In this document: piece after piece, positions 33,001-39,000 of the stretch
Layout of the letters: each line of letters opens with the position of its first letter
Numbering within the stretch: the stretch's first letter is position 1
Source of the DNA: Spirochaetaceae bacterium
GTDB taxonomy: Bacteria; Spirochaetota; Spirochaetia; DSM-2461
Reading direction: 5' to 3'
DNA: 64,000 nucleotides
Assembly (NCBI GenBank): GCA_965224705.1
Contig: OZ245056.1
Location: 2,848,001-2,912,000 of the forward strand
Made by a program: the position numbers

Positions 33001-36000
33001 GCGGATACCTGCTTTCTGCGAAAGCGAAACAGAAACTGGCTGCAGCACGAAGCAACTATGCCCAGAGCGAAGAAGCCGCTGCGCAAATGAGCAAGGTTGA
33101 GACAGCCCTGAAAGGTATTGAAAAAGTCGCCAGGCAGTATACTCGGTTTATTGAAGAGGTTGCCAATGAAATGACCCCTGTACTTGGAGACTTAAAGAAA
33201 ATCGTCACAAAGTCCGGAATTGATTACAGGAAATACAGTAAGGAACAGCGAAAAAAGGTTCATCTATCTGTCGAGTATGCCCACCTGTTGAAATCCTCAC
33301 TGGAAGCACCCCTGCTTACAAAGAACGGTAACTTAAAGCGCGGCATCTCAAAAAACCTGAATGAACTGGGTTCTGCGAGAGAAAACCTTCTGGAAAGCTA
33401 ATGAAGAAGCAGGACAATGAGCAGGCTAAAACAGGTTCAGCCGACTCTTTCAGCTCAGGTCAGATCGGTGCGGCTTTATCAATTAATCATTCTAATGCTA
33501 CTGATGAAGTCATCACCGGCATGGCTGACTTTCTGACTGAGGCAGGGAGAAGGAGCAAGTCCCTTGCCAACCCCGAACTGATAGACATAGCCCAGGGCTA
33601 TCTGTTTGAGGCAATTGAAGTAACCAAGTTCAATAGAGCAGCCGCTGAAGCTGGAACCCCATACAGAGCAGTACTAACCGCCTCAATAAAGGGGCGGGCC
33701 ACGGATACCGTTGATATAGAGATACGGGTTGGAAATAAGGTCGTAAAAAACATCCAGGCCAAATCTTCCAGAAGTGCCGCCAGGTCGCTGCACCAGATAA
33801 CCCAGGACAGGTACAGAGGGATGGACAAGCTTATTCCGAAGGAGCAAGTTGATAAAGCAAAGCAGCTTGCTTCCAGGCGCGCATCATCCGGTTCAATTAA
33901 GGCACAGGATTATAAAGATAGCGTCAAGAACTTGAAGGGTGAAATTGAAGTCGGCAAGGTTAAATCAGGCGGGACAAAGTATAAAGAAACCCTGAAAGCA
34001 GCCAGAAAGCCGGAAGCATATGCAGCCCGGATGGAAGCCAGGTCACTTGCTGAAGAGGCCGCATCAACTGGATTGAAATCCGCGGGAGTCGGAGCGATTA
34101 TCTCTGGTGCAATCTCTGCCATTAAGAACACATACAACTACCAAAAAGGTAGGATCACAGGCGAAGAGGCCCTCGCCAATGTTGCCGCTGATACAGGCAA
34201 AGGTGCGGCAAAGACTGGAGCCGCTGCTGGGACCGGCACGCTGATCCGATATTCAGCAAAGAAATTTGGATCTAAACCCCTGGCTAAATCGAATGTAGCC
34301 GCCGCTATCGCCGCATCAGCTATCGATGCAGGAATTACCATTCATAAGTATGCCAGAGGAGAGATCTCAGGCGCTGAAGCGATGCAGGAGATAGGACAGA
34401 ACGGCACCAGCGCAGCCTCAGGCATTTTCATCGGTGCGGCAGCAGGCGCAGTGTTCGGACCCGCTGGTGCTTTAGTAGGCAGTGTAGGTGGGTTTATCGT
34501 ATCCTCAAGCGTGTATCAATCCTGTCTGGCCATCCTTAAAAATGCTGATTTAGAAGAGAAAGAGGCTGAAAGAATTGAAGCCCTTTGCGCACAATCAATC
34601 AAAGAGATTAACCAGCAAAAAAAGGAATTTGAGAAACAGCTATCAGCAATGCTTAAAGAGAAGGATGCCGCATTTGATAAGCTTATATCCAATCTCAGCA
34701 CAGCCTATGCGAGTGATAACTATATCGGGTCATTCAATGCCCTTACAGACCTTTCCTTTTTCATGGGCAGCAAGTTGAAGTTTAAAGATTTTGAAGAGTT
34801 TGACGACTTCATGACAAGCTCTGACGGCCCTCTCGTTTTATAGACAAATTGAACATAGACAGGGGTACAGCATTAAAATATGCGCCTGGAATGGTTAAAT
34901 CATCTTACATTTTGAAAGTTCAATCCGGTTTTTCACCACGAATAACGGCATCCTCTGAGCCTCTGCCCCTGCCGCTGCATTTACGGTGCAGAGTTTAACG
35001 GCAAAATCACATGTTAGTTGGAGAAGACTCACGACCGGGAGCCTATTCCGCCTGGTGCTCGGCCAGGTAGGTTGCGAAGGCCTTGTCTGCGACCAGAATG
35101 TGCTTGACGAGCCAGGACTCTAAAAATTCCCAGATCTTGTCTGAAAAGATATATTCCCTGTCCTTGCTGATTTCCATCACTCTCTGGGTGAGGCGTCTGT
35201 GGAGTTCATGGTGCTCATCCAGACGGGGGTAGTGATGCTTCTTCATCAAAACCTCCTCCTGGGCAAAGTGGGTCTCTGTGTACCGGATCAAATGTCCCAT
35301 CAGCCGGTCGATTTTTTCATCCGAATCCCTGTTGAGAACGGACTTCTGAAAGTCCTGGGCGTAGACAAAGAGCATGCGATGTTCGTCGTCTATCTGGGCG
35401 ATCCCCAGAGAGAGGTCGTCGGACCATTCGAGAAGGGAGATCTGTTTCAATTCCGCCCCGGATTCCTCGTCTTTGTGATTGATGAGTGTCAGCACCGAGT
35501 CTCCCTTGTTGACCACGGTTTTCTCATCTACCTCGCGGCAGATCGCACCGTCCTTGCCGTTTATCGCCAGCGGACGGATGTGGGGCCTGCCCCGAAGAAA
35601 GTCCCCCAGGGACTGGGATGTCTCGCTATTCTTAAAGAGCTTGAGCTCGTACCCCATAAGGGACTGGGAAGCCGCTGGCAATTCGCCCTGTTTATCTTCC
35701 GACTCATCGGCAATCAGCCGGGCAATCTGCTCGCCCCCCAGTCTCAGGGGGTAGACCACCTTGTCCGCTCCTGCTCTGATGAGACGGTACTCCACCCCGG
35801 GATCGCTCCCCCTGGCGATGATGTTCTGCTTCGGATTCAGTTCCCGGACAGCCAGGGCAATGTTCACATTGGTGCTGTCATCGTTGATACAGAGAAGTGT
35901 CCCTCTGGCCCGTTCAATTCCGGCAGCGAGAAGGGTCGCATCGTTGGTGCTGTCCCCCAGAATGACGGCGAAACCCTTGGCCTGGGCAATTTCAACCAGG

Positions 36001-39000
36001 TCCGGATCGGACTCAATCACCACAAAGTCGATGCTGCCCTCGTAGAGCTTGTGGGCGATAGAACTCCCAATCCTGCCGTAGCCGCAGATGATATAGTGAG
36101 CTGCCAGTTTATTGACCCGTTTTTGCATGCGCATCCTCCCGTATGTGTTGTTCAGTCCCGATTCGACGATGATCTGTCCCATCCGCGAAACGATGGTCGC
36201 CACCACGCCGATGCCTGAAATGATGAGAATGATCGTAAAAGTTCTGCCCGCCGGAGAAAGCTCCCGAACCTCTCCAAAGCCGATGGTGGTGAGGGTGATG
36301 ACTGTCATATAGAGGGAATCAAGAAAGCTCCATCCCTCTTCGAGCACCATGTACCCCGAGGCCCCGGCGATGAGAACGGTAAAAAGAAGACCGAGAAGGA
36401 GTAAGAGGGATTTATCCCACTTCATTAAGCTTGTCCATCAGGAACTCTGGCTCCGTCGTCGTGAAGTATTGGGTTGATGGTTCAGTTCCTGAGAAAGTGG
36501 ATGATCTCATCGGTAAAGTCCCTCTTTCCATCGTGAAGCTCTCTGGCAAAAAGGGCCGCCTTTTTAGCTCCCTTTTAACCTTAAAATAGGATATCATTGG
36601 CAGGGAGTGTTGTCAATGAGTTAATGCCTGACTGTCTGGGATCGAAATATTACACCTTGCGCTGATACAAGACAGTGCAATCCTCCGATTCCCAGCAGTA
36701 TCCTTAAAGAACGGTTGGCAAGAAACCAGCCATTCAGCAACATCAAAATAAGTTCCAACACAATTCGCATTAATAAGCCTCTTTTATATTTCCATTGGGA
36801 ACTTTCACTGGCGCTGGTTTAGGCTTCTGTGGAACCTTTTCGGGACCTTCATAATGCAAATGAGATCCAGTCGTATTTCCGGTCAGTCCCACCTCACCAA
36901 GCTGTACATTCGGCGGCAGGGTAACAGGAGGAAGAAGATTCCCGCCGTATTTTTCGGTCAAACGATTGTTTTCCCGAAGTATACTACTCCAGGCCTGGTT
37001 TGACTTTGCATTGGGATTAATATGGGTATAAACCCGCTGGCCATCCGAACTGTTTGTCCTTATGTAGTATCCAAAACCGACTCCTTGGGTTTTGTTGATT
37101 ATTCTTGTTTTTGTTTTCTTATCTATTATGTCAAAGGAGAATTCAGTCCAACTCGTATCATTGCTGTCCCACTTAACCACTCCAATGGTCTCATTACCCG
37201 TAGTATAGATGGGTGCCCCTTCAGGGGCTGCTAAGTCCGTTGGAGTCTTACCGTAACTCGCCGTGTGACCGGGATAGTCAGTAACCGTGTATGGCTTCTT
37301 AATGGGGGCCCCGGTGGGGGGCTGGAATTCGTATACGTGCTATCGCTTCACTTAAGGTCTCTTTATAGTCATGGATTTCCGATTCTCCGGTATAGTAGTA
37401 ACTCGCATCCATATTTGTTTTGTATTTATTTGCACGACAATATTTTAACATGGGAAGCCTGTTTTGTATCAAGGTAGTGGTGAGAAATAGGGGTTATCGG
37501 TATCTTCGCTATCCATTCTCGCTCCGCTCGCCGGAGGTAGTGTTAAATCATTTTAGGTGCCAACAAAAGAAATAGTAGCAGTATGAGAACAATTGCCGCA
37601 CCCGATATTAAGATAATAGAATAAATTCGAGCGGGCTTTCCGTTTATGATCCTAATTTTTGGGAAAAAAAAGACTCTTATTGATCTGCGCTTAATACCTT
37701 TTATTCCCTTCACCAGGAGATAAGCAATCAAACTTCCAAAAAGAATAACTATGCTTATGTACGATGTTATCATTATCAGAAATTCTCCTTATTCATGCCG
37801 TTTTCATCTGGCTTTGACGGCTGATTGACAGCATCATCTATTGATTCGAGTAAAGGATCCGCAAATCCAGTTTTATCTATAAGTATAGAAACGCCTTGGA
37901 TTACGGCTTTGCCTGGCATCAAAAGCTCTCCAACAGTTTCAGCTGCATCAGTTATGTTTTTTACTTTTTCAATAGTTTCTTCTGATGCACCAAATCTTTC
38001 CGCAATGCTCCCTGTTATTTCTTGCGGGATTGATATCGGGTCCTTATCATCGTCAAAGGAAGTCGTTATTTTTGCTATTCCTTCCACAAGACTCCTCAAG
38101 CCATCCAGAGTTCCAGCGGTTACTAAAATGGCGACAGGTACACTTAGAAGACCTACTGAAGCTGCTTCAGCAGCAACTCCTGTTGCGTAAGATACACCAA
38201 CTTCGAAAACACCTCCTATATTACCTGAAGAGTTCCTAAAATGAAATCCTTAGTACTAAATAAGCCAAAAGGATCAACCCAGTTCACCGGATCATTCCCC
38301 GTATACACATACCAGTTCATCCCATCCCGAATCGGATCCACCGTCGTAAACCGTCCCAATTCAGGCCGGTAATCTCTGTAACCGTAGTTATACAGCCCCG
38401 TAAGCGGATCAAAAGGCTTCCCAACATACCCCCTCCGGTCGGTTTCAATGCTTGCTTCTAAAGGGGAGCCAAACACATCGTAATCGTATAAATCTTCCAG
38501 CTGACCCGAAACGGTAAAGGCCGCCTGTACCGTCCCATGAAAATCCCCAGTGTAATAACTCTGATTCCCCCCGCCGTCTATCTCAGCCAAAGCACGGCTT
38601 CCGGCGATCAGAAAACTCCGGCTCCGATGGCCGCTGACCGCCGGTCTCACATCCGGTTCGCAGCGTCGGTAGCGGGTGGGGGCGGCGTTGTTAAGAGCAT
38701 CCACCCGAAGATCATTTTCCAGCTGCATGGGGATGGTGCCGATTTGGGTTCGCTCTTCCATGGGATTCAAGCCGATAGCCGCCGCTAAAATGCGCCCTTT
38801 GCGTTCCAGGCGGGGCTATCTCTTTCCAAATCGCCAAAACTTCGGCATCACCGCTGTTTTTCAGGGTGCGGAACTGATTCAAAGCCCCCTCTCCCGGTGA
38901 AAAATAGTAGGCGCTGCTTAAAGCGGGGTCAAAAAGTTCAGGATAGACTTTTGATTTATCGCTGACCAGTTTCATGATATCGGCTTTCAGTATAACTTCG

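Follow-up and report, generated by a model that had tools for sequence, protein, structure and literature searches.

The window analysed here, a whole stretch of 64,000 nucleotides of Spirochaetaceae DNA, contains a gene (35043..36425, minus strand; assigned from its ORF, Pfam and NCBIfam) whose 460-residue product, P0001, joins a potassium channel to a hemerythrin. This raises the question of what a di-iron domain does at the end of an ion channel. We consider it moderately probable that P0001 is a nucleotide-binding K+ channel of MthK architecture in which the redox or O2 state of the hemerythrin modulates the gating ring. Gating by O2 or redox state is the reading best supported by sequence and structure models, and O2-controlled ion flow is plausible.

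Architecture of the channel

Three Pfam families match the protein, Ion_trans_2 at residues 13-87 (E 6e-19), TrkA_N at 111-226 (E 2e-33) and Hemerythrin at 341-450 (31.9 bits, cut-off 25.3), and bear out the initial annotation of a two-helix K+ channel with an RCK domain and a hemerythrin. The hemerythrin does end the channel but, contrary to what had been proposed, does not form the C-terminal portion of the RCK domain, since a C-lobe and a linker intervene: the order is two-helix pore, RCK N-lobe, remodelled RCK C-lobe and DcrH-like bacteriohemerythrin. All three families had been reported in 47 of the first 51 matches; the homologue search, using precomputed Pfam assignments, gave 46 of 51 (47 of 52). 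In 77 classified fused sequences (not de-duplicated) the fusion is a single ORF uninterrupted by a stop. An assembly chimera or chance ORF fusion was rejected, given that many independent records show the fusion and purifying selection. In the AF2 model the domains are confident and their relative placement is not (pTM 0.44 at full length); the C-lobe and hemerythrin modelled together reach pTM 0.59, with linker pLDDT below 50. The alignments behind these models were shallow (50 and 23 rows).

The pore module (residues 13-87; 36165..36389, minus strand) superimposes on the MthK pore 4hyo with Z 12.7 and an rmsd of 2.1 over 82 aligned residues, and its AF2 helices span residues 5-28, 34-46 and 58-89. 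P0001 thus has two transmembrane helices, a pore helix and a filter of the form T-x-G-[YF]-G, which reads TTIGFG (residues 46-51; 36273..36290, minus strand), and is predicted to be a K+-selective channel. The filter had been described as kept among homologues. This holds for T47 and G49, present in all 50 rows of alignment A1, but the last glycine, G51, is found in merely 41 of 50, and the filter is therefore less invariant than had been implied. Alignment A1 leaves out P0002, P0050 and P0053, and a second alignment, A2, leaves out P0022, the hemerythrin of which is truncated.

The RCK N-lobe (TrkA_N in Pfam, residues 111-226; 35748..36095, minus strand) retains the nucleotide motif GYGRIG...E138. 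In the de-duplicated fused set, G115 and D/E138 occur in 55 of 55 sequences, G117 in 52 and G120 in 51, and the retained site is likely to be a second gating input. MthK, a Ca2+-gated channel (PDB 1lnq, 6oly), is the top Foldseek match (E 4e-19, 23% identity) and shares the two-helix pore, a single RCK domain with both lobes and, by prediction, an internal start for a soluble RCK; it differs in having no appended domain, whereas P0001 has both the GxGxxG...D/E motif and a C-terminal hemerythrin. By sequence, the best PDB match is GsuK of Geobacter, which is activated by ADP and NAD+ (PDB 4gx0; E 1e-29). The nucleotide-binding Rossmann motif is common to P0001, GsuK and KtrA, according to the available parts of PMC3510474 and PMC6957272, but GsuK has two tandem RCK domains and no sensor tail. 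The residue after the invariant P226 is L, M, I or A in fused channels and mostly Y in ordinary relatives. The intra-dimer glutamate of the KtrA E125 type (PE motif) is absent there, an equivalence drawn by the motif in the accessible part of PMC6957272 rather than by structural overlay, and the Mg-ATP bridging site thus appears to be missing.

The C-lobe (residues 256-318; 35472..35660, minus strand) gives no match to Pfam TrkA_C, being too diverged, and is recognised from AF2 strands (259-265, 283-289 and 310-316), an hhalign comparison with TrkA_C-bearing channels that spans residues 2-320, and alignment of model residues 11-321 with MthK 24-328 (VIA Z 18.9, rmsd 7.4, 280 aligned). On these three lines the idea that the hemerythrin substitutes for the C-lobe was rejected for the family. 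Two members, P0053 and P0160, are without a C-lobe. The linker from C-lobe to hemerythrin is 15-46 residues long, with 25-46 in 8 of 72 rows. The initial annotation did not cover the C-lobe, nor did it cover the retained nucleotide site, the predicted internal start or the members of the clade with no hemerythrin or with degenerate ligands.

The position after the C-lobe in related channels

In 20 related channels the position held by the hemerythrin is taken by a REC or REC+Hpt tail, with the phospho-acceptor Asp present in most. In a tree built from 65 rows of the channel core, the hemerythrin channels nest among these receiver channels (SH-aLRT 98 and 99); monophyly of the REC channels is rejected (p-AU 5e-5) and that of the hemerythrin channels is not (p-AU 0.28). 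The trees cover 154 and 65 of 386 classified sequences, and the quick tree draws on sequences collected with a hemerythrin-family profile. The receiver tails, together with the nested hemerythrin group, indicate that this slot has repeatedly hosted signalling inputs. A broader proposal follows, which we put forward tentatively and rate at somewhat below even chances: one prokaryotic K+ channel lineage may have evolved, behind the RCK C-lobe, a regulatory slot of plug-in type, in which a REC(+/-Hpt) branch would be gated by two-component phosphorylation, and a derived branch would have swapped in a hemerythrin to become directly O2-gated, with eight di-iron sensors per ring, so that anaerobes could turn O2 exposure into an electrical signal with neither kinase nor second messenger. 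The receiver-tailed relatives also raise a separate possibility, that of channels gated by aspartyl phosphorylation.

The REC and REC+Hpt tails in the same slot, with the hemerythrin group nested among them, are new here. The literature search found neither the hemerythrin nor the receiver fusion to a channel described, although S2 Fig of PMC4919030 (56 architectures) or French et al. 2008 could list it. Term searches likewise found no mention of the fusion in the text of PMC4919030, in PMC2556348 (with its one supplement) and PMC1592074, or in bioRxiv 10.64898/2026.03.26.714534.

Alternatively, the RCK domain may be gated as usual by adenine nucleotides or cations, with the hemerythrin as a passenger on a tether, either binding or scavenging O2 close to the membrane or merely co-expressed, and without effect on gating. 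The fully kept nucleotide motif and the variable linker would suit such an arrangement. So would the eight rows within the hemerythrin clade that have no hemerythrin; two loci, L009 and L108, reach a stop inside the locus and have no hemerythrin frame nearby, and the channel therefore persists without the domain. Furthermore, the channel-fused hemerythrin is the sole hemerythrin of its genome, which would permit a general role in O2 handling, and its mean identity is 35% as against 50% for the RCK N-lobe. However, we regard this alternative as unlikely for three reasons: first, the same slot is filled in the 20 relatives by a receiver domain, a type that usually regulates its neighbour. Second, the fusion is kept over three phyla, with hemerythrin distances following those of the RCK (Spearman 0.48 over non-independent pairs). 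Third, the tailed channels have a remodelled C-lobe, with R214, Q233 and L261 in common. Y225 is more restricted, occurring in 89% of hemerythrin channels, 0 of 20 REC channels and 2% of ordinary channels.

The named hosts are Desulfovibrionaceae, spirochaetes and one Fibrobacteraceae genome. These are mostly anaerobic groups. The fusion occurs in 10 of 301 Desulfovibrionaceae genomes, and Desulfovibrio inopinatus (WP_051261232.1) is a cultured carrier. Within the family of the present genome, a count of 7 in 38 had been given for full-length copies; we found 8 of 38 with this genome included, which equals 7 of 37 others. In a same-genus genome only a 272-bp remnant is left. No further full-length copy appeared among 400 genomes sampled from the phylum (four candidates scored per genome), and in a check for plasmid carriage none of 469 matching records covers 80% of the protein. 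Across 16 fused or remnant loci there was no conserved neighbourhood or operon and no recurrent O2-defence gene.

The hemerythrin domain

The domain (residues 331-454; 35064..35435, minus strand) scores 103.9 against the bacteriohemerythrin model NF033749 (cut-off 84) and is likewise above the cut-off of TIGR02481. The seven ligands H349, H386, E390, H405, H409, H442 and D447 align to those of DcrH and form the canonical H-HxxxE-HxxxH-HxxxxD motif. Their reported conservation, 48-50 of 50 for each ligand, was reproduced in A1, where the complete set is present in 45 of 50 rows; it is complete in 67 of 72 homologue rows, the five altered rows comprising three with H349L and E390Q and two with H405Q. 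P0001 also has an N-terminal loop tryptophan, W334, and a pocket of L352, F387, L412, W438, L439 and I443, of which W334 (68), L352 (63), F387 (71), W438 (66) and I443 (55) are conserved in the 72 rows. The sensor DcrH-Hr is the closest solved hemerythrin by both sequence (E 2.6e-15) and fold, the four-helix bundle superimposing on 2avk with Z 18.8 and an rmsd of 1.9 over 128 aligned residues at 32% identity. The domain is under purifying selection, with dN/dS of 0.084, 0.159 and 0.091 in the three of nine pairs with unsaturated dS. It is predicted, from sequence and models, to be a di-iron bacteriohemerythrin of the O2-binding type.

The hemerythrin of FBXL5 is a reporter of iron availability. 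It is conceivable, but quite improbable, that the present domain acts similarly, its apo and loaded states tying K+ flux to metal status rather than O2. Two closely related loci do have an iron-dependent repressor gene at a distance of about 2.5 kb, but iron genes do not recur in the others. Such a role has been proposed for the hemerythrin-like domain of P1B-5-ATPases, the function of which the 2022 review still treats as unresolved in its available part (PMC9388753). However, P0001 has the canonical O2-binding motif and not the P1B-5 form H-HxxxE-HxE-HxxxxD, the hydrophobic pocket is kept, and DcrH (Z 18.2) is a far closer match in fold than FBXL5 (Z 9.0). Least probable of all is that the di-iron site responds to a different oxidant or ligand (NO, nitrite, H2O2 or sulfide): in DcrH, the chemistry of the di-iron site is altered by engineered changes close to it (PMC9388753, in part), and a subclade with Phe for the pocket Ile443 may have altered specificity (I443F in 15 and L439F in 11 of 72 rows), but Ile443 is kept in P0001 and in 55 of the 72.

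Predicted internal start and proposed gating

A putative internal translation start, GGGAGG-6 nt-ATG of M100 (36126..36140, minus strand; from sequence and comparison across loci), would yield a soluble RCK-hemerythrin subunit of 361 residues. Internal starts are established for single-RCK channels (PMC3510474, in the part available). All 15 fused loci have ATG as the internal codon, preceded in 12 of the 15 by Shine-Dalgarno (SD) pairing at least as strong as -5 kcal/mol, compared with 16% of 126 other in-frame ATGs; the signal is strong in the present gene. This test left out four loci (an unrelated match, a remnant, a frameshifted locus and a duplicate ORF). A synonymous-resampling control gives an only moderate result, the SD being stronger than the mean of the resampled sequences in 14 of 15 loci (median p 0.18). 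In ten Desulfovibrionaceae loci the codon is ATG in nine and ATA in one, with a strong SD in one of ten, and unfused relatives have ATG, GTG or TTG at this position in 110 of 117.

Given this start, a gating ring with eight hemerythrins is predicted: four full-length and four soluble chains would form the octamer. Under anoxia the sites would be diferrous, and O2 would bind and autoxidise them to the diferric state. In DcrH the N-terminal loop is ordered in the met and disordered in the deoxy form (PMC9388753, available part). Oxidation of P0001 could order the equivalent loop, here the tether to the RCK C-lobe, and the ordered tether would shift the RCK dimer hinge and hence the pore, with adenine nucleotide in the retained Rossmann site as a second input. 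We lean slightly towards reduced being closed and oxidised open, such that K+ flux upon O2 exposure would change membrane potential or pH; the direction is a guess, and in both full-length hemerythrin enzymes characterised so far it is the reduced form that has the higher activity. Redox gating is strengthened by the slot shared with REC relatives, by the canonical motif of DcrH type, accompanied by the N-terminal loop, and by purifying selection. Against it stand the patchy spread, the hemerythrin-less clade members, the degenerate ligand sets, the variable linker and the lack of conserved neighbours.

Chimeric hemerythrins with the canonical motif are, where characterised, O2 or redox regulators, and the classes named in the available part of the 2022 review are MCP, DGC, HD-GYP and P-type ATPase only (PMC9388753). 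P0001 resembles DcrH in its seven canonical ligands, N-terminal loop and C-terminal hemerythrin, but the output of hemerythrin sensors is a chemoreceptor or c-di-GMP enzyme and that of P0001 a channel gating ring. The one precedent found for a hemerythrin-like domain at the C terminus of a membrane transport protein is the P1B-5-ATPases (PMC9388753, in part), which are ATP-driven metal pumps with a non-canonical motif, whereas P0001 is a passive channel with the canonical one. In the literature examined, no RCK channel is O2-gated through a built-in metal sensor, and no hemerythrin class in the accessible part of the review drives a channel (PMC9388753). The same source names as the key gap a full-length hemerythrin protein in active and inactive states; a K+ channel offers a single-molecule readout and suits cryo-EM, so this family would open hemerythrin signal transduction to direct tests. 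If correct, the proposed gating would provide a class of bacterial channels, the stimuli of which are mostly unknown, with a physiological trigger, and might offer a genetically encoded oxygen-to-voltage converter.

Contigs from a mollusc metatranscriptome (two runs of one study) span 35214-36570 with low depth and an identity of about 95%; the flanks of that strain differ and DNA carry-over is possible, making them a weak hint of expression. The gene looks monocistronic. As a lead only, a candidate sigma-70 promoter, TTGACA-17-TATCCT with TG (36588..36616, minus strand; 10 of 12 consensus positions), sits about 160 bp upstream, one of 3 sites found where 1.3 were expected. The GC content of the fusion gene is 54.6%, as against 47.1% for the genome.

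Domain architecture of the channel

The gene at window 35043-36425 (minus strand) is an open reading frame of 460 aa whose product, P0001, carries a two-helix channel (residues 13-87), a TrkA_N domain (residues 111-226) and a hemerythrin (residues 341-450) by Pfam, the last also exceeding the bacteriohemerythrin cut-off in NCBIfam. GsuK, MthK and DcrH-Hr are its best PDB sequence matches. In the AF2 model (pLDDT 86) the pore is followed by an RCK N-lobe, then by a small beta-rich domain (approximately residues 256-318), and finally by a four-helix bundle on a flexible linker. 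Full-length MthK, C-lobe included, is matched by residues 11-321 (Z 18.9, rmsd 7.4, 280 aligned), residues 329-458 align with DcrH-Hr (Z 18.8, rmsd 1.9, 128 aligned), and in profile comparison the match to TrkA_C-bearing channels extends through residue 320. Given the MthK alignment and the profile match, the hemerythrin sits after a complete, remodelled RCK; the initial annotation correctly recognised the domain but misplaced it as the C-terminal part of the RCK itself. The RCK of the hemerythrin channels retains the GxGxxG...D/E nucleotide motif and, unlike KtrA (PMC6957272), lacks the 'PE' glutamate. Literature searches and term searches in two hemerythrin surveys, which did not take in French et al. 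2008 or the architecture figure of one survey, returned no description of this fusion or of the receiver fusion discussed below. The protein is a real, conserved and apparently undescribed variant of the MthK-type channel, for which oxygen/redox gating is a well-founded hypothesis.

Conservation, distribution and genomic setting

All three Pfam domains occur in 46 of the first 51 homologues (47 in the earlier count). An exhaustive profile search was headed by 15 full-length representatives, and a 52-member ESM Atlas cluster has the same architecture; automatic database labels call members either bacteriohemerythrin or potassium channel. The iron-ligand conservation claimed at the outset was borne out: alignment A1 retains the full set of seven in 45 of 50 rows and alignment A2 in 67 of 72, the altered sets in A2 being H349L with E390Q (three rows) and H405Q (two rows). 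The last filter glycine is kept in 41/50 and is variable in ordinary relatives too. Of nine pairs compared, three have unsaturated dS, and in these the dN/dS of the hemerythrin is 0.08-0.16. In a related strain 25 of 33 in-gene differences are synonymous among those listed (77 further lie outside the listing). The subclade P0011-P0027 (L083-L086) has Phe at O2-pocket position 443, with three members lacking two iron ligands, possibly reflecting changed specificity or decay.

Named hosts include Maridesulfovibrio, Humidesulfovibrio (a frameshifted copy), Desulfovibrio inopinatus, Sediminispirochaeta, other Spirochaetia and a Fibrobacteraceae genome. The distribution is patchy (8/38 genomes of the host's family; 10/301 Desulfovibrionaceae), and a phylum sample of 400 genomes, with four candidates scored per genome, held no further full-length copies. 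G037, a genome of the same genus, retains no more than the final 272 bp of the gene (L144:7002-7273, 90% identical), adjoining a PD-(D/E)XK transposase-like gene. In G029, the fused channel is immediately preceded on its own strand by a second hemerythrin-domain gene (L141:6398-7207, 269 aa; domain 33% identical). An ABC transporter (membrane and ATPase) with a C-terminal hemerythrin domain at L021:306-2594, near a frameshifted channel copy, is another transporter-hemerythrin fusion.

The host is probably a spirochaete, to judge from the named homologues, and the channel's hemerythrin is the only one in its genome. A separate candidate promoter lies ~160 bp upstream of the gene, whose GC content is 54.6% vs 47.1% genome-wide (top 4% of same-size windows). 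The gene is convergent with an unrelated three-gene cluster (31933-34843, plus strand), in which the first gene encodes a TerB-like protein and the other two encode glycine/alanine-rich proteins (335 and 480 aa) for which no Pfam or NCBIfam family exceeded the cut-off. An Rhs/transposase region (36770-46225) adjoins the channel gene. It contains duplicated Rhs core fragments that differ in their C-termini, integrase-core remnants, a WG-repeat protein and a DDE transposase whose 34-nt inverted repeats are at 44411 and 46346. Conservation of gene neighbours across loci is confined to close relatives.

Receiver-tailed relatives and evolution of the tail

Among the relatives ranking just below the fused proteins, 20 channels carry a response-regulator receiver, often with Hpt, at the same post-C-lobe position (loci L011:4980-6734, L017:5001-6764, L045:5001-6344 and L064:232-2076; proteins P0135, P0137-P0140, P0142, P0143, P0147, P0151, P0153, P0154, P0156, P0159, P0161, P0165 and P0196). 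Named sources are Acidobacteriota, Planctomycetota, Calditrichota and Desulfopila. Most retain the acidic pocket and phospho-acceptor Asp, and these fusions are candidate phosphorylation-gated channels. P0138 has Hpt at the N-terminus, the filter of L017/P0151 is degenerate (PTQFD/PAQFE), and in Desulfopila a diadenylate cyclase (CdaA) gene follows the channel (L045:6564-7352; one occurrence). Profile matches also included multi-pore RCK channels with three (P0155, P0157, P0162) or two (P0158) pore modules.

In quick trees of the channel core alone, built from a biased sample, 11 receiver channels join the hemerythrin channels in a single supported group (0.98 in one tree; SH-aLRT 99 in another), below which two more receiver groups branch. 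A single receiver clade was rejected (p-AU 5e-5); a single hemerythrin clade was not (p-AU 0.28). Either hemerythrin took the place of an ancestral receiver tail or tails of this kind arose more than once, and both readings imply that the post-C-lobe position serves regulatory input.

A proposed model for gating and ring assembly

W334 of the hemerythrin N-terminal loop is kept in 68/72 rows and the loop lies 15-22 residues from the RCK C-lobe in 64/72; the loop is the tether to the C-lobe in these channels. The simplest model, which we consider probable, is that O2 would oxidise the di-iron site, that oxidation would order the loop, and that this ordering would shift the RCK dimer hinge and alter open probability; nucleotide binding would be a second input. 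Opening on oxidation is slightly favoured, since holding the channel open at rest, under anaerobic conditions, would be expensive, and may be analogous to protective K+ efflux by Kef (PMC10224563). Eight tail-less rows nest in the hemerythrin clade, of which two or more end at a genuine stop codon with no hemerythrin in the vicinity, indicating that the channel can do without the tail. The hemerythrin is unlikely to be a passenger without a gating role. Sensing of iron is improbable, and sensing of another ligand slightly more so.

Soluble RCK from an internal start completes the octameric ring of single-RCK channels (PMC3510474). In the P0001 gene, GGGAGG lies 6 nt ahead of the M100 ATG, which predicts a ring bearing eight hemerythrins, although such a ring may not be valid family-wide. 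The equivalent codon is ATG in all 15 fused loci tested, and SD pairing reaches -5 kcal/mol or stronger in 12 of them, vs 16% of other in-frame ATGs, a signal for which the synonymous control is only moderate. Ten Desulfovibrionaceae loci, partly overlapping the 15, have a weak SD in nine and ATA in one. Among unfused relatives, ATG, GTG or TTG occupies the position in 110 of 117.
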